From an uncultured bacterium (lineage in GTDB: Bacteria; Auribacterota; JACPWU01), in NCBI GenBank assembly GCA_964640155.1, contig CAZXEQ010000001.1, positions 366,403 through 398,402 on the forward strand: a stretch of 32,000 nt of DNA, written 5' to 3'. Shown here piece by piece: positions 5,034 through 15,049 of the stretch. The notes beneath the pieces are model-generated. The model saw nothing but the letters and a program-made list of their open reading frames with translations. It was not told the DNA's origin and ran no database searches. A program made the translations under genes and the position numbers. Position 1 is the first letter of the stretch. Every line of letters begins with the position of its first letter.

Positions 5034-6356
5034 ATGAAAAAAACTTTAGTTTTTGCATTTTTAATCACTTCCCTTTCATTCCCTGTTTTTTCAAATGTAA
5101 AAAATCAAGGTCAAATACAAGCCCTTCAAGGAGAAGTCCAGTTTTTTGAGAAGGAAGGAGCCTCTTCTCAAGCTGCAAAAGTGGGAATGACGGTGATCTC
5201 TTCGAATATTATTGAAACTGGCAATCATGCTTATTGCGTCATACAACTCGATGAACAAAATTCTTTGCGAATCAAACAAAATGCACGTGTTAAAATTGAG
5301 AAAATATGGGAAGCTTCTAAGAAGCCTGATGGATCTGTGGTCAATGAAGCTCGTTTAGATTTAATGAGAGGCGAGCTCACCGCGAAACTCAATAAAATTC
5401 CTGCTAATTCTAAATTTGAAGTTTCAAGTCCAGTCGCTATCGCAGGAGCAACCGGAACGGCCTACACCGTCTATGTAGAACCCGAAAATTCAAAAACCTC
5501 TGTCACTGTTTTAGATCATCAAGTCGAGGTCATCAACACCAATGAATCTGGGAAAAGCGTTCAAGTACAAAAATTTCAAAGAGTTGAAACAGCCCCATGG
5601 GCCCAAACAACTGTTTCAGCTTTAGGTCGAGGCGTATTATCAGAAGCCATTTTAGGGAAAGATTTTGTAAAGCAAGCCGAAAACAATATTGAAATTCAGT
5701 CTGTTGGCACGGGAACCAATCCAGAAGAAGCAAAACTTCAGGCCTTGTATCAATTATCTAAAATCATTCTCAATCTTCATGTGGATCAGGAAAAAACTCT
5801 TGAAAAGGTTATGGCTGAAGATCTGATTCTGACTCAAAAAGTTTATCAAATGATTTCAAATGCTCAGATCGTTGAATCCACCACTGCTGACGGGAAATCT
5901 CAAAGCAAAGCAAAGATTGATCTTGTATCTTTAAATCAAGCGTTAGGCAAATCCCTTTTCGGACTGACTCAAAGCGTGATTCCAATTTCTCAAAGTGAAT
6001 ACTCTAAGAAATTTAGTGCCTTAGCCCGTGTAACCACCGTTCGAGCTGCTCAAGTGGAAGGCTACCGCAATTTGGCTGAAATCATTTATGGAACAGTTAT
6101 TAACGCCGACACTACCGTAGAAGATTTTGCAGTTAAAAACGATACCGTTAGGACTAAAGTACAGGGCCTTGTTAAAGGAGCACAAGTCATTAACACTCAA
6201 TATTTTTCGGATGGCTCTGTTATTGTTTCATTGGAGATTCGAGGAGATCTCATCCCTGAAAACTTGAGTTCTGTCACAGGAGATGTTTTTGGGAAAAATT
6301 ATCTTTCTGGACCTCGATTAATTGAATATAGAGAATTTATAGATTTGGACTTTTAA
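5034..6356 (+). CDS. Secreted FecR-domain protein fused to LPP20-type domain(s)
   Basis: AAGGAG RBS 6 nt upstream. Signal peptide MKKTLVFAFLITSLSFPVFS. FecR-like beta-sandwich pattern (LQGEVQFF...VGMTVISSNIIETGNHAYCVIQLDEQNSLRIKQNARVKI...VSSPVAIAGATGTAYTV). The C-terminal LPP20-type domain reads RAAQVEGYRNLAEIIYGTVINADTTVEDFAVKNDTVRTKVQGLVKGAQV...DGSVIVSLEI. A more degenerate copy begins at SVGTGTNPEEAKLQALYQL. Confidence 0.65.
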   Translation: MKKTLVFAFLITSLSFPVFSNVKNQGQIQALQGEVQFFEKEGASSQAAKVGMTVISSNIIETGNHAYCVIQLDEQNSLRIKQNARVKIEKIWEASKKPDGSVVNEARLDLMRGELTAKLNKIPANSKFEVSSPVAIAGATGTAYTVYVEPENSKTSVTVLDHQVEVINTNESGKSVQVQKFQRVETAPWAQTTVSALGRGVLSEAILGKDFVKQAENNIEIQSVGTGTNPEEAKLQALYQLSKIILNLHVDQEKTLEKVMAEDLILTQKVYQMISNAQIVESTTADGKSQSKAKIDLVSLNQALGKSLFGLTQSVIPISQSEYSKKFSALARVTTVRAAQVEGYRNLAEIIYGTVINADTTVEDFAVKNDTVRTKVQGLVKGAQVINTQYFSDGSVIVSLEIRGDLIPENLSSVTGDVFGKNYLSGPRLIEYREFIDLDF

Positions 6357-7126: not shown

Positions 7127-8071
7127 TTAGAAATGATACGTAAGCCCTAACGCTGCACTCCAAGATTTCCAATTCACCTCATCAAGAATCGCATGCCCAG
7201 ATGTCCCGTCTGCAAAAAAAGTTCTATCCTCTCCTGTATCTGTCGACCAATCTTGATAAGTAAGATCTAAATTAATAGACCAGTGAGAGGAGAAAGCGTA
7301 ATCTGCTCCTCCTGATAATTTTAGACCATCCCCATCCGCATCATGAGAATAGCTCTTGGGATGTTGGAAATCTTCACGTTGAGCCCAATTCCCCACAGCA
7401 CTATAATTAACAAAGTGATATTCAAAACCAAAAAGAAATGTCAGCTTTTTTGTAGCATCATAAGATAGATCCATTCCTAGCCAAGCCCCATGCCACTGAG
7501 TTTCATAAGAACTGTTCACATCTCCCGTCGCAGAACCTACGGGAGTATCATCGATTTGATTTAATGTTATAACCCCATCATGAATTTCCAAATTCTGTTC
7601 TTGATATGAGTATCCAACAAGAGGAGTAAAGCTCAATCGATTCGAACAAAAATCGAATTGCACTCCTATCCCAGATGATGTATCCAAAACATTTCCACCC
7701 TCTGCAGAATGGTGAGTCCTTGAGAATTCGTCCTGGCGGGGATGTTTTACATCTCCAACAAAATCTGAGTCCTGTACTTGTCCATCCAAAATCCAACCAT
7801 AGGCAAATTTACCTTTAAGAACAAAAGTATCATTCACAATAATCTTGCCATTGGTACTGAGTTGGTCTATATCCAAATCCTTCCAAGTCAGGTCAGAAGC
7901 AATTCCCAGCAAACCCCCAACATCATCGGGTTGTACTCCATGAAGAGAAAATTTTAAGTCATCCGAGCGATACCCATTCGCCACATTCAATTCTGTTTCA
8001 ATTTTTCCAAACGCAAGTGTATTTGCAAAAATAACAGCAAACAAAGAAACCCATTTGAACCATTTTTTCAT
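7127..8071 (-). CDS. Omptin-like outer-membrane beta-barrel protein
   Basis: Signal peptide MKKWFKWVSLFAVIFANTLAFG. Alternating amphipathic strands and a terminal LGLTYHF (C-terminal Phe). By-eye collinearity with E. coli OmpT: SDLTWKD ~ SQLDWKF, QVQDSDFVGD ~ MVDQDWMD, YETQWHGAWLGMDLSY ~ YKQRFKMPYIGLTGSY, and LGLTYHF ~ AGLKYTF. Confidence 0.5.
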   Translation of the reverse strand: MKKWFKWVSLFAVIFANTLAFGKIETELNVANGYRSDDLKFSLHGVQPDDVGGLLGIASDLTWKDLDIDQLSTNGKIIVNDTFVLKGKFAYGWILDGQVQDSDFVGDVKHPRQDEFSRTHHSAEGGNVLDTSSGIGVQFDFCSNRLSFTPLVGYSYQEQNLEIHDGVITLNQIDDTPVGSATGDVNSSYETQWHGAWLGMDLSYDATKKLTFLFGFEYHFVNYSAVGNWAQREDFQHPKSYSHDADGDGLKLSGGADYAFSSHWSINLDLTYQDWSTDTGEDRTFFADGTSGHAILDEVNWKSWSAALGLTYHF

Positions 8072-8343: not shown

Positions 8344-9327
8344 TTAGGGCTCATTCTCAAACTTCAGAATATCTCCTCTCTGAAATCCAGCACCACCCAC
8401 AGCACTTGCAATGGAGAATTTGTCTTGCACTTGAAGAATTTGAATACGACCAACTTTGGTCAATTCAGATCCTAAACTCATACCAGACTCAGGATCTACC
8501 AATTCCTCACCTGCTTTGTAAACATTCATCATATCTCCATTAGAAATACCTGCATTGGCTCCAGCATTGACAAAAACCTTTCCATCTGGTTTCACATCAA
8601 CAATACGACCAGACCATGGAATATTTTGCATTCGGCTAACAATAAAAAACACTGCTTTGCTAATAGCCATTTGACATGCTTTGCCCAAAGGTGTTCTATC
8701 AAAACCACCTCCACCAAAAGCAAAATCTCTATCTGTATAAGAGAAAGATAAACCTCCCTCTTCAGCAATACCTTCACAACGTTGAGAATCAAGAACCTGC
8801 CCTGTGGTTGTATCATAAATACGAATATTCACAGCCACCTTGGCTCTTGCAGAATTTCCTCCTATCGTAAAACCCTTCACAGAAAAACCTCCGCCTTCAC
8901 CACCACCAGAAGCTTCAAACTCTGTGACAGCTCCACTGATCATAATCTGAGCTTTCAAGATTTTACCGATTTTAGCAGCTTCTCCACCCGCAGTACGGCC
9001 ACTTACACCAAAATCTTGCTCAGTAATCACTTTTTCAATCTCAGGTCTTTCAACCACAATAAATCGACCACTGGCAATCAATGAGGTAGTTAACATTTCA
9101 GCCATACCGTTTCCTAAATCCCATTTAGCAAATTGCCCAGCTTTGTTCTCAAAGCTACCTACAGCAATGGTTTTTTTAGGTCCCATGGGAGCTGGCAATG
9201 CAACTACAGGAGCTGCATGAACAGGACGACCACGAGCGGGACGTCGATCATAGCTAAAGCCTAAAGACTGAATTAAAAAAACAATGAGAAACCCTCCTAA
9301 AATACTTCTTATCATTCTGACACACAT
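8344..9327 (-). CDS. CsgG-family outer-membrane channel protein with a C-terminal beta-domain extension
   Basis: Collinear with E. coli CsgG as I recall it. TIAVGSFENKAGQF ~ IFVSVYNIQDETGQF. MAEMLTTSLIASGRFIVVERPEIEKVITEQ ~ ATAMLVTALKDSRWFIPLERQGLQNLLNER. The Gly-rich hairpin region AQIMISGAVTEFEASGGGEGGGFSVKG...AKVAVNIRIYDTTTGQVLDS ~ ANIMVEGSIIGYESNVKSGGVGARYFG...IAVNLRVVNVSTGEILSS. About 90 extra C-terminal residues (GRIVDVKPDGKVFVNAGANAGISNGDMMNVY...RGDILKF) follow. AGGAGG RBS 10 nt upstream. Confidence 0.8.
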   Translation of the reverse strand: MCVRMIRSILGGFLIVFLIQSLGFSYDRRPARGRPVHAAPVVALPAPMGPKKTIAVGSFENKAGQFAKWDLGNGMAEMLTTSLIASGRFIVVERPEIEKVITEQDFGVSGRTAGGEAAKIGKILKAQIMISGAVTEFEASGGGEGGGFSVKGFTIGGNSARAKVAVNIRIYDTTTGQVLDSQRCEGIAEEGGLSFSYTDRDFAFGGGGFDRTPLGKACQMAISKAVFFIVSRMQNIPWSGRIVDVKPDGKVFVNAGANAGISNGDMMNVYKAGEELVDPESGMSLGSELTKVGRIQILQVQDKFSIASAVGGAGFQRGDILKFENEP

Positions 9328-9448: not shown

Positions 9449-10624
9449 CTATTCTGGTTGAAGCGGTGTTAAATTTTCCCCCGCTGGTTCAGCACCAGCC
9501 GTCCCTATAACTTTCACATCAATTCTGTTCTGTGTTTTCCCTGTAACAGATAAAGAAAGACTTGGCAAACTTTCCAATCTTTCATCGAAATCTTTCCAAA
9601 TGGCGCCATCAACATTCACATCCAAGATAACTACCCCATTGACAAAACTTCTTTCGCTAACACTTTCCACTCCGCGAATGGATTCTAAATCCTTAACAAG
9701 CATGCGGCGTGTTGTAGCATTCGCTCCTTCTGCAATAATTTGTATATTCACCGTATTAAAAGCTTCGCTTCTCATACGATCCACCACTTGAACCATCATT
9801 CTTTCAGCAAGCTGAGCCGCACCCTGACGAAGAGAATCCTTAGCTGTAGGAATACGTCCTCCGCCACGTGCTTCTGAATCAGCTTGATCTGAAACCATGA
9901 CTTCGGCTGTATCTGTTTTAATGGCTTTAGCGGAAATCTGTGAACGATAGGCAAACACAGAAACACCATAAGGTCTAGAATTATCAACCAAATCTGATGT
10001 CGCCTGTCCTACGATCACGATCTCAGCTCCGTATTGACGGCCTAAAGCAGCAGCTTTTTGAGGATCTGCATAACTCAAAGAAGCATCTCTTTCTTTAATC
10101 ATTTGCATTTGAGCTTTATCTACCAAAGGAAACTCTTTCGCCAAAAAAGCTCTTTCCATCTCTGTCTGAGTAACAGCACCTGCTTGTTCCAAACCATCAA
10201 TCAATTCAGAGAAAATAAACATGGTTCTTGGATTCCCACGACGTTTCATCGTAAGTTTAAGCGCCTTGAGATTCTTCTCTAAAAGACCCAATGCAACGGT
10301 CGCTCGTACACGAACAATATAGATTCCACCTTCACCGTGATTATCTCCAATCACTTCATAATTTGTCACATATCCTTTTACATGAGAATAAACTTGATCA
10401 TCCAAAAGTTGAAAATTACTGACCATTGTTTCTGAATCAATAACAGAACCCACTCCTTGTTCGATTGCAGCACGCAAAGCTCGATTCAAAGCCTCATCAT
10501 GAGCTTTAAGATCAGAACCTGCAGCTTTACCTTCAAGCTCAATAATTTTTTCGGATGCTTGTCCCATCACGATGGAACTAACCATCCACACGCTCAAAAA
10601 AAACATGCTTAGTAATCTTTTCAT
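9449..10624 (-). CDS. Secreted FlgT-like three-domain protein (LPP20/FlgT_N-like, then TolB-N/CsgG-like alpha/beta domain, then a C-terminal domain)
   Basis: Signal peptide MKRLLSMFFLSVWMVSSIVMGQA. The N-terminal domain reads AHDEALNRALRAAIEQGVGSVIDSETMVSNFQ...VKGYVTNYEVIGD...GIYIVRVRATV. The middle domain has the PRTMFIFSE...EFPLVDKAQ...ALGRQYGAEIVIVGQATSD pattern, as in CsgG/TolB-N folds. The track start at 10663 lies inside a GC hairpin, so the ATG at 10624 is used. Confidence 0.45.
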   Translation of the reverse strand: MKRLLSMFFLSVWMVSSIVMGQASEKIIELEGKAAGSDLKAHDEALNRALRAAIEQGVGSVIDSETMVSNFQLLDDQVYSHVKGYVTNYEVIGDNHGEGGIYIVRVRATVALGLLEKNLKALKLTMKRRGNPRTMFIFSELIDGLEQAGAVTQTEMERAFLAKEFPLVDKAQMQMIKERDASLSYADPQKAAALGRQYGAEIVIVGQATSDLVDNSRPYGVSVFAYRSQISAKAIKTDTAEVMVSDQADSEARGGGRIPTAKDSLRQGAAQLAERMMVQVVDRMRSEAFNTVNIQIIAEGANATTRRMLVKDLESIRGVESVSERSFVNGVVILDVNVDGAIWKDFDERLESLPSLSLSVTGKTQNRIDVKVIGTAGAEPAGENLTPLQPE

Positions 10625-10662
10625 TTTTAATCTTTCCCTTTCTACCCCAGATTCAAGAACCA

Positions 10663-10688
10663 CTCGCCCCGACGTAAGTCGGGGCGAG
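10663..10688 (-). terminator. Intercistronic GC-rich hairpin (attenuator, processing or stability element)
   Basis: CTCGCCCCGAC-GTAA-GTCGGGGCGAG forms a perfect 11-bp stem with a 4-nt loop. The downstream tract on the minus strand is only weakly U-rich (UGGUUCUUG). Confidence 0.4.
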
Positions 10689-10703: not shown

Positions 10704-10841
10704 TTATTCAACCACTTCTTGTTGCTCAACAACTCTTTCGCTTACAACTTCACGATCCGTATGACAAGCACATCCTGTTAAAGTAACCAAAAGAATTCCT
10801 ACATAAGCTACACTCACCCATTTCAAAAGCTTCATAATCAT
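10704..10841 (-). CDS. Small lipoprotein (45 aa), not in the ORF track
   Basis: My translation is MIMKLLKWVSVAYVGILLVTLTGCACHTDREVVSERVVEQQEVVE*. Lipobox L-T-G-C. An AAGGAG RBS lies 4 nt before the first ATG and 10 nt before the third-codon ATG at 10835, which may be the true start. Confidence 0.55.
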   Translation of the reverse strand: MIMKLLKWVSVAYVGILLVTLTGCACHTDREVVSERVVEQQEVVE

Positions 10842-10934: not shown

Positions 10935-12275
10935 TTATGAATGATACTGACGAATCTTCTCCCAAAGGCTCGTTAAAGAAATTTGAGCCTCTACTTCAGC
11001 GCTACCATCTTCGAGAAATCGTGGCTCGCTGACCTGAGCACCCGCCAAGAATGTCTGAACTTCAGCTTTAATATTGTCATTCTCAACCGCAAAATCTTGA
11101 ACGGTTGTATCAGAATCAATTTTAACGCCATAGACCATTTCAGCCAAATTTCTCTTGGCATCAATTTCAGCAGCACGAGCAGCAGCTAATTTTCCTTCTG
11201 TTCCACTGCCTTCAGGTGCAATACCTGTTCCTTTTGCACTTACAACCTGACTTGCCCATTCAGGAGATTCTTCAATCGTCTGAGGAGCCATAGCCATAGG
11301 TTCAGGAGCAGGACCATTCTTATATTTCTCAGGAGGAACACCTTCTCCTGTAACGCGAATGTATTTTTTAGGATAGAACTTTACAACTTCCTCAAATCGT
11401 GTCGTTTTTAAATGATCATGTGACCAACGATGATAAGGATCATGATGATGATACCAATCACGAATCGTCGTTAATTCCTTAATAACGGTTTGAATGGCCA
11501 CTTCAACGTCGACTTGGCATATCCCATCTGGCATATAACGATAAGCTCCAACTGTTTTCATGCCTTTGATAAAGGTATCCACTCGTGTTGAAATCTGATC
11601 TGATTCAGCCACAAAATCACGAACATAGGTATCAGCTGTAATCTGAAGACCTTTAATACGTTCAGCCATATTACGATAAGCATCTACCTTTGCAGCTCTT
11701 TCAGCCATCATACGACCCCGGGCAGAAACATTCTCCCATCCAGGTATTCCTGTCGTAGGAGCAGCTAAAGTAGGCTCCACTGGAATTGCGGCAGGTGCTT
11801 CTTGCATTACTTCTGGTGTTTCCCGAGGAGCACCACGACCTGTTTCACGAATCACTTTTAAACGATTGATTGTGACCATCTTATCAAATGAATAAACATG
11901 ACCATGACACAAATGATGGTATGTTTTATAAAAACGTTGAAGTTGTTGAACCAACTCTTGAAGTGTGATTTCAACCGTAACTTCAGCAGATCCATCCTCA
12001 AAATAGCGAGGAGCACCTACTACTCTTGCGCCTTTAAGGAAAGTATCCAAAGAAGTACGAATTTCATCTGCTTCTGCCACAAAATCACGAACATAGGTAT
12101 TGGCATCAATCTTCAAACCTTTGATTCTTTCCGCCAAATTCCGATATCCATCCACAATTGCTGCTCTTTTTGCTAACAACTTCTGCTGCCCTGGCTGTAA
12201 AGCCCAAGACGTAGAACTGATGCTGGCCATAAAAACAGCGGCCAATGCTAGAAAACTTATGACCCTTCTCTTCAT
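10935..12275 (-). CDS. Secreted protein with three tandem LPP20-type domains joined by His/Tyr-rich linkers
   Basis: AGGAG RBS and signal peptide MKRRVISFLALAAVFMASISSTSWA. The three repeats are LAKRAAIVDGYRNLAERIKGLKIDANTYVRDFVAEADEI..., MAERAAKVDAYRNMAERIKGLQITADTYVRDFVAESDQI... and AAARAAEIDAKRNLAEMVYGVKIDSDTTVQDFAVENDNI... The linkers are YKTYHHLCHGHVY and DWYHHHDPYHRWSHDH. Confidence 0.7.
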   Translation of the reverse strand: MKRRVISFLALAAVFMASISSTSWALQPGQQKLLAKRAAIVDGYRNLAERIKGLKIDANTYVRDFVAEADEIRTSLDTFLKGARVVGAPRYFEDGSAEVTVEITLQELVQQLQRFYKTYHHLCHGHVYSFDKMVTINRLKVIRETGRGAPRETPEVMQEAPAAIPVEPTLAAPTTGIPGWENVSARGRMMAERAAKVDAYRNMAERIKGLQITADTYVRDFVAESDQISTRVDTFIKGMKTVGAYRYMPDGICQVDVEVAIQTVIKELTTIRDWYHHHDPYHRWSHDHLKTTRFEEVVKFYPKKYIRVTGEGVPPEKYKNGPAPEPMAMAPQTIEESPEWASQVVSAKGTGIAPEGSGTEGKLAAARAAEIDAKRNLAEMVYGVKIDSDTTVQDFAVENDNIKAEVQTFLAGAQVSEPRFLEDGSAEVEAQISLTSLWEKIRQYHS

Positions 12276-12358
12276 TTTGTTTCTCCTTTTTCTTTGTATT
12301 ACAGTCTAACTCATTCCCTAAAGGGCTATGAGAATCTTTCACTCATTATCTTATAAAA

Positions 12359-12883
12359 CTACTTATTCCACTCCACCCACGCTTCTTCAGAAATGGTTTC
12401 CACTTTTCGATCTACCGTGTATATATGGACACCAAAATCTTTCACTCTCTTGATAATCCATACTTCATTCTTAGATTCAGGAAAACGAATATCTAATGCA
12501 AGCTTCACCTGTACACGTCCATCAGGAAGATAGTTCTTTTCAACAACACGAGCCCCACGAATAAATCCTGTTGTCGAAACCATTCCTGTTCCATGATCAA
12601 GAATCGGGTTTAATCGATCCACTGCAGATATCAGGTTACGATAAGCTCTTAACTTTGCAGCACGTTCTGCTAATAATTTTCCTTGAGCTTTCCCTCTTCC
12701 ATGAGGAGCTCGCCCCACACCTACAACTTCAAGAACACCTGTGGAAGAATTTTTTTCGATAGATTCATTTGTTGTCAATGCCACGGTAACAGAAGAATCA
12801 GTTGCTGCCTTAAGTGAGGGGATTCCTCCCCCTAACATAGTCAACAGAAGTATGTTAGATATTATAACTTTTAATATTCTCAT
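12359..12883 (-). CDS. Secreted single-LPP20-domain protein
   Basis: Signal peptide MRILKVIISNILLLTMLGGGIPSLKA. The LPP20 pattern is VVGVGRAPHGRGKAQGKLLAERAAKLRAYRNLISAV...GFIRGARVVEKNYLPDGRVQVKLALD. Confidence 0.6.
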   Translation of the reverse strand: MRILKVIISNILLLTMLGGGIPSLKAATDSSVTVALTTNESIEKNSSTGVLEVVGVGRAPHGRGKAQGKLLAERAAKLRAYRNLISAVDRLNPILDHGTGMVSTTGFIRGARVVEKNYLPDGRVQVKLALDIRFPESKNEVWIIKRVKDFGVHIYTVDRKVETISEEAWVEWNK

Positions 12884-12925
12884 ATCGCAATACCTTTCTA
12901 AAAGCGGAACTCAAGAACAATCGAC

Positions 12926-12947
12926 CCTCTGCATTTTATTGCAGAGG
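12926..12947 (-). terminator. Hairpin immediately after the small Tyr/Arg-rich gene (candidate partial terminator or attenuator)
   Basis: CCTCTGCA-TTTTAT-TGCAGAGG forms an 8-bp stem. On the minus strand a moderately U-rich tract follows (GUCGAUUGUUCUUG). It starts 24 nt after the stop codon. Confidence 0.4.
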
Positions 12948-12970
12948 CTCGAAGTTCAGTTTTTGTATTA

Positions 12971-13255
12971 CTAGCAATCCCTATAATAACCATGTCTATA
13001 GCCATGATGACGATATTCACGATATCCATAATAAGGTCTGTAGACCACTGGACGATACACGACAGGGCGATAAACAGGTTCTTCATAATAATAGCTTCCT
13101 CTGTGGCATGAAGAATCTGCCAAAACTGCACCTGTTACAACTCCTGCAAACGCTCCAGCTGCAAACCACGCTGCATCATCACTGGCTTTTGACTGCTCTG
13201 GTGCTGCAAAAGAAAACAATCCTAATACTACCAAAATAACGATTAACTTTTTCAT
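12971..13255 (-). CDS. Small exported glycine-zipper protein with a Tyr/Arg/His-rich repeat tail
   Basis: AAGGAG RBS and signal peptide MKKLIVILVVLGLFSFAAPEQSKA. GxxxGxxxG zipper (GAFAGVVTG). The 48-residue tail holds 13 Tyr, 8 Arg, 4 His, the repeat PVYR-PVVYR-PVVYR, and Cys at both ends. Confidence 0.7.
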   Translation of the reverse strand: MKKLIVILVVLGLFSFAAPEQSKASDDAAWFAAGAFAGVVTGAVLADSSCHRGSYYYEEPVYRPVVYRPVVYRPYYGYREYRHHGYRHGYYRDC

Positions 13256-13289
13256 TTTAAATCTCCTTTTTTCATCTGGCTATATATTG

Positions 13290-13305
13290 AGCAAGATCAA
13301 TGCCA
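13290..13305 (-). promoter_or_regulatory. Sigma-54 (-24/-12) promoter
   Basis: The minus strand reads TTGGCATTGATCTTGCTC, that is TGGCAT-N5-TTGCT against the consensus TGGCAC-N5-TTGCW with exact GG/GC spacing. It lies about 35 nt upstream of the ATG at 13255. A sigma-54 activator gene is divergent from it. Confidence 0.75.
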
Positions 13306-13368
13306 ATCCAATTAACACATTCCAATAGAACGAGTTATGATATTTTATCTATTTAAGACCTAAAAATA

Positions 13369-13399
13369 TTGTTTCAAAATGGAGCAAATTTTATATAAT
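13369..13399 (+). promoter_or_regulatory. Candidate sigma-70 promoter for the activator gene
   Basis: TTGTTT (13369-13374), then 17 nt, then TATATAAT (13392-13399). Confidence 0.3.
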
Positions 13400-13401
13400 A
13401 A

Positions 13402-13485
13402 CGTTGTGCGTACTGCGGGATGAGTCATGTGCAAAATAAAAAAACCAAATCTTTAAGCTTTCACGCATAGCGCAGCACGCAACAC
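13402..13485. promoter_or_regulatory. TGCGT/ACGCA motif array (candidate enhancer/UAS and/or leader structure)
   Basis: CGTTGTGCGTA (13402-13412), ACGCATAGC (13463-13471) and ACGCAACAC (13477-13485). The two ACGCA units have a 14-nt period. The array lies 97-180 bp upstream of the -24 box and within the presumed leader of the activator gene. The same arrangement occurs upstream of glmS. Confidence 0.4.
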
Positions 13486-13501
13486 GAACGACGAGGGAAA
13501 A

Positions 13502-15049
13502 ATGGCATTCGAAAGTAAACATTTACAGCAGGTTCTTCATCAATTAGGTGATGAGGCTCTGGGAGAACTGATCAAAGTCAGTACTCTCATTAATTCGTCC
13601 TTGGATTTATCCGAAATTCTTGCCTTTGTCATGGATTTGACCAATCGACTTCTCAATTGTGAAGCCAGTTCCCTTTTACTTTTAGATGAAAAAACAAATG
13701 AGCTTGTATTTCGATCTGCCACAGGACAAAAAGCCAAAGATTTAAAACAAATCAGTCTCAAAATGGGACAAGGCATTGCAGGTTGGGTCGCTGAAAAAGA
13801 AAAGCCTTTGATCGTTTCAGATGCTGAAAATGATCCACGCCATTTTCAAGGAACAGATGGGAAAATTGGATTTAAAACAAAATCTATTCTTTGTGTCCCT
13901 ATGAAAGCTAAAGGCAAGTTAATCGGTGTAGCGGAAGCGATTAATAAAAAAGGTAATATGGAATTTGATAATGATGATTTATCTCTTCTTTCTATTCTTG
14001 CTGATCAAGCAGCCATTGCCATTCAAAACGCTAGAACTTTTGAAGAACTTCAACAAAACCACCAAAATCTAAAACAAGAAATTGAATCCAAATATAACTT
14101 AGTAGGAAAATCTGATCAGATCCAGGAAATCCTTAAAATAGCGAAGAAAGTAGCAGCTGGAGATTCAACCCTTCTAATCCGGGGGAAAAGCGGAACAGGT
14201 AAGGAGATGTTGTCACGAACAGTGCACAATTTAAGTCCTCGTTCCAATAAACCCTTTGTTGCAGTGACTTGTTCTATTCTGACACCCACCCTTCTTGAAA
14301 GCGAACTTTTTGGACATGAGAAAGGGGCTTTTACAGGCGCTGATGCTAGAAAAATTGGCCGTTTTGAAATGGCAAATGGAGGAACACTTTTTTTAGATGA
14401 AATTGGAACTTTAGCTCCTGAAACACAATTAAGACTCTTACGTGTTTTGCAGGAAAAAGAGTTTGAACGTGTCGGAGGCACAGAAACAATTAAAGTTAAC
14501 GTGCGCATCATTGCCGCAACCAATGCTGACCTTGAAAAAGCGATTGCCAGTGGAGAATTTAGAGAAGATTTATATTATCGACTCAAAGTCATTGAAGTTT
14601 TTATGCCCGATCTCAAAGACAGACCCGATGATATTGAAACTTTGAGCAAACATTTTCTTGAGATTTATTCACGTGAAATGAGTCGAACTGTGAAGGGATT
14701 TTCAAAAGAAGCCATGGAAATTCTAAAAAATTATGCCTGGCCTGGAAATGTTCGTGAACTAAAAAATACCATTGAAAGAGCTGTGGTCTTGGGTGGCAGC
14801 GAACAGATTATTCCTGAAGACCTTCCCATGGAAATACGCATGGGTAAAATTTCCTCTTCTTCATCTCAAAGCACCGTAACAACTCCCTCTTCTTCCCTGC
14901 CTGAAGGATTTTCACTAGAGGCTGCAGAAGCTAGACACATTCAGGAAGTGCTACAGAAAACCAATTGGAATAAAAGCAAGGCCGCAGAACTTTTGGGGAT
15001 TTCAAGAAATCGTCTGGATAGAAAGATTGAAGGATACAAATTACAATAA
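13502..15049 (+). CDS. Sigma-54-dependent transcriptional activator (GAF - AAA+ - Fis-type HTH)
   Basis: N-terminal GAF-like domain. Walker A GKSGTGKE, sigma-54 contact loop EKGAFTGA and Walker B TLFLDEIG. C-terminal HTH KSKAAELLGISRNRLDRKI. There is no receiver domain. Confidence 0.9.
   Translation: MAFESKHLQQVLHQLGDEALGELIKVSTLINSSLDLSEILAFVMDLTNRLLNCEASSLLLLDEKTNELVFRSATGQKAKDLKQISLKMGQGIAGWVAEKEKPLIVSDAENDPRHFQGTDGKIGFKTKSILCVPMKAKGKLIGVAEAINKKGNMEFDNDDLSLLSILADQAAIAIQNARTFEELQQNHQNLKQEIESKYNLVGKSDQIQEILKIAKKVAAGDSTLLIRGKSGTGKEMLSRTVHNLSPRSNKPFVAVTCSILTPTLLESELFGHEKGAFTGADARKIGRFEMANGGTLFLDEIGTLAPETQLRLLRVLQEKEFERVGGTETIKVNVRIIAATNADLEKAIASGEFREDLYYRLKVIEVFMPDLKDRPDDIETLSKHFLEIYSREMSRTVKGFSKEAMEILKNYAWPGNVRELKNTIERAVVLGGSEQIIPEDLPMEIRMGKISSSSSQSTVTTPSSSLPEGFSLEAAEARHIQEVLQKTNWNKSKAAELLGISRNRLDRKIEGYKLQ

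Follow-up and report, generated by a model that had tools for sequence, protein, structure and literature searches.

A small glycine-zipper gene with a tyrosine-rich tail upstream of LPP20/FlgP-like genes in uncultured Auribacterota

Small proteins are often overlooked in annotation, and a short gene at the head of an operon of LPP20/FlgP-like and CsgG-like proteins in an uncultured bacterium of the Auribacterota, a candidate phylum of the PVC group, raises the question of what its product does there. The gene is located in a stretch of 32,000 nucleotides of contig CAZXEQ010000001.1 (hereafter the window), where it occupies positions 12971..13255 of the minus strand with 94 codons and a stop, and encodes a glycine-zipper protein with a Tyr-rich tail. 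A first-pass annotation had given the same coordinates, which stand, leaving the strand unstated, and had proposed that the product could be the substrate of the CsgG-like channel or a SlyB/Pcp-like ring former. Here we report that the small gene is coding and under purifying selection, that it belongs to an unnamed family, and that an LPP20/FlgP-like gene follows it in three lineages; we tentatively suggest that its product may serve these partners as an anchoring or cross-linking subunit.

An unnamed family of small zipper proteins

The minus-strand open reading frame (ORF) is translated into 94 residues, MKKLIVILVVLGLFSFAAPEQSKASDDAAWFAAGAFAGVVTGAVLADSSCHRGSYYYEEPVYRPVVYRPVVYRPYYGYREYRHHGYRHGYYRDC. 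Pairwise ratios of nonsynonymous to synonymous substitution rates (dN/dS) of 0.08-0.26 overall demonstrate a coding gene under purifying selection, with the zipper being the most conserved segment (0.11-0.14) and the tail ranging from 0.10 to 0.51. Orthologues are present at the same position in other assemblies, two at ~70% identity together with one identical copy. A homologue search with the single sequence returned 3 proteins only, and profiles were needed for more: searching 1.84 billion representative proteins exhaustively with a profile gave 19 proteins at E <= 1e-3, and two further profile searches of a 5.8-billion-protein set enlarged the family to ~50 clusters. All of these clusters are unnamed or 'hypothetical', and no precomputed Pfam domain is assigned to them except in weak outliers. 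As well, the window protein matched nothing above threshold in Pfam, NCBIfam or PDB sequences, and a Pfam search with 45 family members assigned no family, three of the 45 showing sub-threshold glycine-zipper matches (Gly-zipper_YMGG, Rick_17kDa). Matches of the small protein to Ibs_toxin, mini-MOMP and PG1828 were discarded, because they cover the signal peptide only. As for the sources of the family, two metagenome-assembled genomes (MAGs) carry the NCBI label 'Chlamydiae bacterium', the GTDB-representative MAG with family member P0002 is labelled 'Candidatus Auribacterota bacterium', and a profile scan of species-representative genome contigs found one locus, in a Candidatus Auribacterota MAG.

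Three features are constant in the alignment of the 45 members. The first is a putative signal peptide with an MKK start and a small-x-Ala (S/G/V-x-A) cleavage motif and without a lipobox, in which A24 is invariant and S22 nearly so. The second is a short acidic stretch followed by a fully apolar Gly/Ala-rich helix, the consensus of which reads D-D-W-G-W-F-A-A-G-A-x-A-G-x-x-T-G-A-V-L-A-D in the lineage of the window, Y-A-G-D-E-G-W-A-A-A-G-G-L-L-G-G-L-I-L-G in a second lineage and G-T-A-F-x-x-G-A-L-T-G-A-L-V-A-G-A-V in a third; a strict GxxxGxxxG pattern is present in 31 of 43 relatives. The third is the tail, 41-74 residues long, in which Tyr accounts for 16-34% (mean 26%) and P-[VIAC]1-2-Y motifs recur at a mean of 2.4 per tail. 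The family was defined by a signal peptide, a D-x-GW-x-AAG-xxx-G-xxx-G zipper and a Tyr-rich tail, encoded 5' of an LPP20-like gene; the window protein scores 135 bits against the family profile (alignment A4) and is also encoded directly 5' of an LPP20/FlgP-like gene.

Other features of the tail vary across the family, with His at 0-26%, Arg at 0-17%, Pro at 0-20% and 0-5 Cys per tail (none in 14 of 43). Several relatives carry His/Cys-rich GCGH repeats, many have neutral or acidic tails with 0-4% Arg, and the tails of the lineage described below as type B contain neither His nor Cys. The Cys caps, the abundance of Arg and His and the triple PVVYR in its exact form are traits of the close relatives of the window protein and not of the family, so a disulfide-closed tail or metal chemistry cannot be the core function of the family. 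A metal-binding peptide, a precursor of a ribosomally synthesized and post-translationally modified peptide (RiPP) and a toxin were set aside as candidates, since His and Cys are variable, modifying enzymes and immunity genes are absent, and the synteny is stable and housekeeping-like.

In the window protein, the putative signal peptide (residues 1-24, 13184..13255, minus strand) consists of an MKK n-region, a hydrophobic core and a predicted cut between SKA and the next Ser, which fits the -3/-1 rule; this reading of the sequence agrees with the first-pass annotation. As no lipobox Cys is present (there is none before residue 50), the peptide would be of the signal peptidase I type and not that of a lipoprotein. 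It is followed by an apolar glycine-zipper helix (residues 26-49, 13109..13180, minus strand) with Asp on both flanks, and this includes the motif GAFAGVVTG at residues 34-42 (nt 13130-13156). AlphaFold2 predicted a signal-peptide helix, a single helix at 26-49 / 27-50 (predicted local distance difference test score, pLDDT, of 72-81) and a tail with pLDDT < 50, and the picture was identical with the 3-sequence and the 45-sequence alignments. Judged from the residue pattern, the zipper helix has no polar face, with G34/G38/G42 and A33/A37/T41 on one side and F/V/L on the other.

The tail, counted from residue 47 to 94 (48 residues), holds 13 Tyr, 8 Arg and 4 His. Its Tyr/Arg/His-rich, predicted disordered part (residues 50-94, 12974..13108, minus strand) is bounded by C50 and C94, the only cysteines of the protein, and contains three repeat units (residues 60-73, 13037..13078, minus strand), PVYR from residue 60 and PVVYR from residues 64 and 69. 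A recount returned all the values that had earlier been obtained by hand for the zipper motif, the tail composition, the cysteines and the repeats, and the repeat units, which had been described as diverged at the nucleotide level, do use different codons in each unit (CCTGTTTATCGC / CCTGTCGTGTATCGT / CCAGTGGTCTACAGA). Against a background of 2.7% Tyr in 20 long ORFs of the window, the Tyr excess of the tail has a binomial P of 3e-10, and the richest 48-residue stretch across these ORFs holds 6 Tyr. Rich in Tyr, Arg and Pro, the tail has one Gln and no Asn, and its 8 Arg vs 5 acidic residues give it a net positive charge.

Gene neighbourhood and expression signals

In all family members with a readable neighbourhood (three lineages, 20+ loci), the small gene is located directly upstream of an LPP20/FlgP-like gene. 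In the window, this second gene (12359..12883, minus strand) encodes a 174-aa secreted LPP20/FlgP-like protein with profile matches to the FlgP structures 8z5n and 9hmf. The first-pass annotation had advised looking for the same small gene upstream of CsgG-like/LPP20 operons elsewhere, and this search revealed a consistent linkage in other genomes.

In type A, the lineage of the window (L001-L010), the order is a divergent sigma-54 activator gene, the small gene, and genes for a 170-175-aa LPP20-like protein, a 440-447-aa triple-LPP20 protein, a 43-45-aa ORF, a 378-425-aa protein and a CsgG-family protein with a FlgT_C-like C-terminal domain. The activator gene adjoins the small gene in every type A locus with a readable upstream side. 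Type C (L092-L095), a second and more divergent lineage, has no adjoining activator gene and carries GHL10 and DUF4416 genes upstream, followed by the small gene and genes for the LPP20-like, triple-LPP20, 44-aa, ~375-aa, CsgG-like and FecR+LPP20 proteins.

Type B was obtained from a metagenome scan seeded with the second gene, which gave 80 distant LPP20-like loci, and from a profile search of their ORFs. The small gene was present in 12 of the 80 loci, upstream of the LPP20-like genes and on the same strand, and also in L096. It is directly upstream of the matched gene in nine of the 12, and upstream of a neighbouring 186-190-aa LPP20-like gene in L053, L057 and L071. This high-GC lineage possesses an S41 CtpA-like peptidase gene, the small gene, and genes for a 185-196-aa LPP20-like protein, an 84-91-aa Pro-rich lipoprotein and a 170-174-aa LPP20 lipoprotein, and then the unrelated GlnE and ArsA; neither CsgG nor an activator gene was found in the 6 kb flanks that were read. 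Since type B has the LPP20 genes without CsgG, the constant partner of the small gene is the FlgP/LPP20 proteins and not the channel. Moreover, an association that is kept in three promoter/neighbourhood contexts is more likely to reflect a partnership, physical or functional, than linkage by chance.

The Pro-rich lipoprotein of type B is itself a small low-complexity envelope protein (84-85 aa; L053 4645-4899, L057 2264-2518, L071 4919-5176), in which the lipobox GSAGC is followed by PPPPYPVQ... and PPVYVPAPP.

The small gene is preceded by a sigma-54-type -24/-12 element, TGGCAT-N5-TTGCT (TGGCATTGATCTTGCT, 13290..13305, minus strand), and is the first gene behind it, as the first-pass annotation had proposed. 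The element is the sole TGGCAY-N5-TTGCW match in the 32 kb, and as 11 of 100 shuffles also gave a match, the single window match alone is not significant. Of the six type A loci, five carry it 47-51 nt upstream of the ATG and the other has a near match; the same spacing is kept in all three type C loci having upstream sequence, while no strict match of the TGGCAY-N5-TTGCW type was present upstream in the type B loci. Conservation across types A and C makes the sigma-54 element credible despite its weak single-window statistics. Also, a conserved dyad-like block (TTGCTCCATTTTGAAACA, 13370..13387, minus strand; TGCTCCA-N3-TGRARCA) lies ~70 nt upstream of the -24/-12 element. It is present in all type A loci, forms a perfect palindrome, TGCTCCA-N3-TGGAGCA, in L092 (about 755-775), and is kept even in type C loci without an adjoining activator gene. 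The GAF-sigma-54 activator, as the enhancer-binding protein, probably binds at this dyad, and sigma-54 dependence with an enhancer site appears well supported by this conservation. The ribosome-binding site AAGGAG (13263..13268, minus strand) is located 8 nt before the ATG and reads AGGAGG in orthologues, consistent with the strong site noted earlier.

A stem-loop with the core CCTCTGCA / TGCAGAGG (12921..12952, minus strand) lies between the small gene and the second gene, and the 92 nt 3' of the small-gene stop codon fold with -30.7 kcal/mol (z = -4.7). It had been taken for a partial terminator; the hairpin is real by this measure and recurs in many relatives, but it has no T-run and is therefore not a canonical terminator, and a simple terminator scan 3' of the small gene gave no terminator-like site. 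Rfam gave no match in window positions 12300-13520. With unrelated sequences, a 3' stem-loop is present in four of six type A loci (the window, L001, L003 and L010, the hairpin of L010 being terminator-like) and in four of five type B loci, where GC-rich stems of 17-20 bp with -54 to -75 kcal/mol directly follow the small gene (L069 5504-5648, L071 4220-4331, L053 3861-4017, L096 7720-7887). Such a recurrent hairpin would fit differential, and higher, expression of the first cistron. Taken together, the promoter-proximal position, the strong ribosome-binding site and the frequent 3' stem-loop suggest that the small protein may be made in excess over the downstream proteins.

Operon partners and a proposed role of the small protein

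Downstream of the second gene, a 446-aa protein with three LPP20/FlgP-type domains (10935..12275, minus strand) matches Pfam LPP20 at 8.9e-19 over 3 stretches, as well as FlgP chains in PDB. The LPP20 matches of the 174-aa family and of the 446-aa domains include the solved FlgP chains 8z5n, 9hmf_C, 9yds and others, and the alignment to Campylobacter FlgP has no gap across the beta-hairpin insert, a feature that correlates with the formation of rings in the SHS2-like family (PMC12222027). Two linkers of the triple-LPP20 protein, YHHLCHGHVYSFD (residues ~115-131) and RDWYHHHDPYHRWSHDHL (~272-290), are His/Cys/Tyr-rich, and their patterns YHHLCHxHVYSFD and RDWYxHxDPYHxWxHxHL are invariant across type A and may form a lineage-specific metal-binding site. 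The first-pass annotation had seen here a hint of chemistry shared with the tail of the small protein, which did not survive the comparison: the linkers are specific to type A, and His in the family tails ranges from 0 to 26%. As type C has ordinary sequence in their place, the linkers do not explain the conserved features of the small protein.

A 45-aa ORF (10704..10841, minus strand) carries the lipobox LTGC (MIMKLLKWVSVAYVGILLVTLTGC followed by ACHTDREVV...), and a 43-45-aa gene is present at the same position, in the interval between the triple-LPP20 gene and the ~375-404-aa gene, in L003, L004, L006, L095 and the P0007 contig, so that the ORF is likely a conserved micro-lipoprotein of the operon system. 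The next gene (9449..10663, minus strand, GTG start at 10663) encodes a secreted protein of 404 aa without a known family and with weak LipL46/LpoB similarity, which would be ~391 aa long should translation in fact begin at the internal Met at 10624; the protein is conserved in types A and C. It is followed by the gene of the CsgG-family protein (8344..9327, minus strand; Pfam CsgG 1.9e-36), which aligns to E. coli CsgG with E = 5e-8. Both transmembrane-hairpin segments are kept, 2-4 residues shorter than in E. coli CsgG, and the loop that corresponds to the constriction of E. coli CsgG (around Y51/N55/F56) carries a deletion of 7 residues; a FlgT_C-like domain (residues 250-319), a weak FlgT_M match and no clear lipobox were found in addition. 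According to these features, the CsgG-family protein may not be a curli-type channel. The 174-aa, 446-aa, 404-aa and CsgG-like proteins all lack a lipobox Cys, and the sole lipobox of the operon is that of the 45-aa ORF.

Two genes on the plus strand belong to the same surroundings. The sigma-54 activator (13502..15049), divergent from the small gene, has GAF, AAA+ and HTH_8 domains according to Pfam. A FecR+LPP20 secreted protein is recognized by its domain matches (5034..6356); its homologue is a conserved neighbour in L003 and L006 and closes the operon in L093 (12401-13684), and the window copy is therefore probably part of the same system. Beyond these, DUF3307 and CHASE2-cyclase genes are conserved neighbours in type A. 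A gene of the Pom family (Protochlamydia outer-membrane protein) for a beta-barrel follows the CsgG-like gene (7127-8071, minus strand), as in L004, and is not at that position in L003 and L006. Toxin-antitoxin pairs (PIN; HigB/HTH_3; ParE-like) stand beside the operon in L003 (15687-16303) and L006 (3616-4754), and not in the window; these insertions mark local variability around an otherwise fixed gene order.

The role which we favour, tentatively and as the leading candidate rather than as a settled answer, is that the mature small protein may be a Sec-exported, abundant anchoring or cross-linking structural subunit of an LPP20/FlgP-type envelope assembly. The precursor would be exported and cut after Ala24 to give a mature protein of ~70 aa. 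The summed Hessa free energy, a crude position-independent sum, is +1.8 kcal/mol for the zipper helix of the window protein and spans +1.8 to +3.8 kcal/mol when the best 19-mer of each family member is taken; in all type A members, both helix ends are flanked by Asp and not by Lys/Arg. With a positive sum and Asp flanks, the segment is not expected to be a firm stop-transfer anchor, and the whole mature protein would cross the inner membrane, as applies to the comparable helices of SlyB and YfgH. Lacking a polar face and not hydrophobic enough for firm stop-transfer, the helix would be buried either by homo-oligomerising in the periplasmic leaflet of a membrane, in the way known for SlyB, YfgH and OsmB in the outer membrane, or in a groove that the LPP20-like partner provides. 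The tail, multivalent and rich in Tyr, could then serve as a sticky tether that holds on to the FlgP-like lattice, the cell wall or itself through pi and cation-pi contacts or by stacking on sugars. As the LPP20-domain proteins of the operon have no lipid anchor, the small protein and the 45-aa lipoprotein would be plausible membrane anchors or cross-linkers.

Several observations weigh against this role. The best-scoring relatives of the second gene in the metagenome scan (L012-L014), like other LPP20-like loci, have no small gene upstream, so that the LPP20-like fold can do without this partner. It is low-complexity segments that carry the homology of type B with types A and C (E about 1e-9 against a small database), and type B could therefore be convergent; convergence would be at least as telling for the functional argument. 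The 3' hairpin is absent in L006, L008, L043 and all type C loci, the free-energy sum is as crude as stated above, and a non-lipidated protein would have no evident route to a membrane or means of staying there.

Among the alternatives, that of a secreted cargo or fibre subunit survives best, and we still regard it as unlikely. Here the small protein would be exported by Sec, pass through the CsgG-like protein as an outer-membrane channel and polymerise or become cross-linked at the surface, its conserved N-terminal segment being the targeting signal. A CsgG-family gene in the same operon in types A and C, the retained segments aligning to the E. coli CsgG transmembrane hairpins, the hfaA-hfaB precedent (PMC6707917) and a predicted disordered, probably abundant protein with a signal peptide, encoded first, are all in its favour. 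However, the small gene is accompanied in type B by LPP20 genes without CsgG in the flanks read, so that the earlier idea of a channel substrate does not hold as a conserved relationship, and the loop aligning to the constriction is 7 residues shorter. As well, CsgE/CsgF-like genes are missing, one would hardly expect a fully apolar helix of 20 residues in a soluble unfolded secretion substrate, and there are neither Q/N-rich curlin repeats nor any similarity to Curlin or HfaA.

A free-standing membrane stabiliser is more doubtful than cargo. In that case the small protein would be a non-lipidated functional analogue of SlyB, YfgH or OsmB, oligomerising in a membrane under a stress that the GAF-sigma-54 activator senses, and only co-regulated with the LPP20 and CsgG proteins. 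The GxxxGxxxG helix, the sub-threshold matches (to OsmB, and to Gly-zipper_YMGG and Rick_17kDa in three of the 45 members), the inducible sigma-54 control and the stress-specific zipper lipoproteins described in the literature are compatible with it. However, the window protein has no lipobox, one helix instead of a two-helix hairpin and no membership by hidden Markov model (HMM), which also removes it from the SlyB/Pcp-like ring formers, for which it had been listed as a candidate, and its strict LPP20 adjacency over three lineages with different promoters and neighbourhoods argues for a specific partnership. Finally, a bitopic inner-membrane protein, with the zipper as stop-transfer once the signal peptide is cleaved, the N-terminus out and an Arg/His/Tyr tail in the cytoplasm, for instance as a regulator of the activator or a metal-binding peptide, is very improbable, because the apolar segment of 19-20 residues, the net positive window tail and the GCGH repeats of several relatives, which would suit it, are set against positive free-energy sums, Asp flanks, tails that are often neutral or acidic with no consistent positive-inside signal, and a type B tail without His or Cys and with no activator gene nearby.

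Returning to the structural subunit, a wider and rather speculative picture, to which we give little credence at present, is that the operon builds a sigma-54-induced envelope structure of FlgP-type (LPP20) rings or sheets with a CsgG/FlgT-like component, a relative of the basal disk/H-ring outside or independent of the flagellum. The 70-residue protein would be its abundant membrane-embedded 'glue', in which zipper bundles and a multivalent, possibly gel-like or cross-linked Tyr-rich layer tie the lattice to the envelope. No flagellar genes were seen in the window or in any related locus, and some Auribacterota encode flagella and others do not (PMC9324843), so that the operon as a whole may also have a motor-accessory role.

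A family of ~50 clusters, none of them named or domain-assigned, thus marks a conserved gene set (the small protein, the LPP20/FlgP-like, micro-lipoprotein, ~375-aa, CsgG-like and FecR-LPP20 proteins) in uncultured members of the PVC group, namely Candidatus Auribacterota and its relatives, as well as in one or more further lineages. In flagellar motors, proteins of the FlgP type assemble into large disks in the periplasm, and the gene set offers a clonable system for the roles of LPP20/FlgP domains outside these well-studied motors, as well as for the periplasmic function of non-lipidated zipper helices and of disordered tails rich in Tyr. The wider impact would be modest if the gene is only a lineage-specific accessory.

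Comparison with known systems

SlyB/Pcp, YfgH and OsmB (PF05433, PF13488, PF13441) are similar to the small protein in being small exported envelope proteins with an apolar GxxxGxxxG helix, which in their case self-associates in a membrane, and their induction by stress or by regulators resembles the sigma-54 control of the small gene. The glycine-zipper helices of SlyB and YfgH sit in the outer membrane (bioRxiv 10.64898/2025.12.22.696046). Unlike the small protein with its predicted signal peptidase I site, all three are lipoproteins with a lipobox Cys, and SlyB and YfgH consist of a two-helix hairpin and a folded periplasmic domain, whereas the small protein has one helix and a predicted disordered Tyr-rich tail. 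Its score against NCBIfam OsmB is 13 bits, with a cut-off of 98.

The HfaA-HfaB holdfast anchor of Caulobacter and CsgA-CsgG of curli combine a small secreted protein with a CsgG-family protein encoded beside it, a pairing that recurs in types A and C, and HfaA is a small multimerising structural subunit encoded with HfaB (PMC6707917). However, the small protein has no sequence similarity to HfaA or CsgA and no curlin-type Q/N-rich repeats (no Curlin_rpt match), the CsgG-like protein of the window has a shortened constriction loop and an extra FlgT_C-like domain, and the small gene also occurs without CsgG.

The FlgP basal disk and H-ring (FlgP, FlgQ, FlgT, FlgO; FapH in Helicobacter) share with the operon the FlgP/LPP20 (SHS2-like) domains downstream and the FlgT_C-like domain, and small accessory proteins encoded beside flgP are reminiscent of the small gene. 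Lpp20 and, apart from some exceptions, FlgP have been described as lipoproteins, which the LPP20 proteins of the window operon are not, and none of the loci, the window included, showed flagellar genes. A glycine-zipper, Tyr-rich partner of FlgP was not found in the flagellar-motor literature consulted or in literature searches, and searches for work on LPP20 together with CsgG and on the LPP20 domain gave no papers.

The BA14K (PF07886) and PXPV-repeat (PF12778) proteins of proteobacteria also have a signal peptide, a Gly-zipper segment and a Pro/Val/Tyr-rich stretch (P0027, P0013, P0020), and P0027, a weak match of the family profile, is a genuine BA14K protein that shows this arrangement in its N-terminal part. 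These proteins possess a C-terminal, Cys-bounded BA14K domain or PXPV repeats at or near the Pfam threshold, and the small-protein family has neither; a PXPV match was obtained in one of 45 relatives (E = 0.076) and not in the window protein.

In a PDB search with the family profile (A4), mammalian prion proteins were matched at residues ~110-170 (E = 0.004-0.05), and otherwise only PLA2G6, which is unrelated (E = 1.3). In the prion protein, an Ala/Gly-rich zipper (AGAAAAGAVVGGLGG) is similarly followed by a Tyr/Arg-rich stretch with YYR motifs, but that region folds into a globular domain. We see no ground for homology, the match being marginal and compositional, and it is useful only as a reminder that the combination of a zipper with Tyr and Arg is aggregation-prone.

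From these comparisons, the small protein represents an unnamed family on the glycine-zipper envelope theme, which is set apart from the known systems by its Tyr-rich disordered tail and its fixed FlgP/LPP20 partnership.

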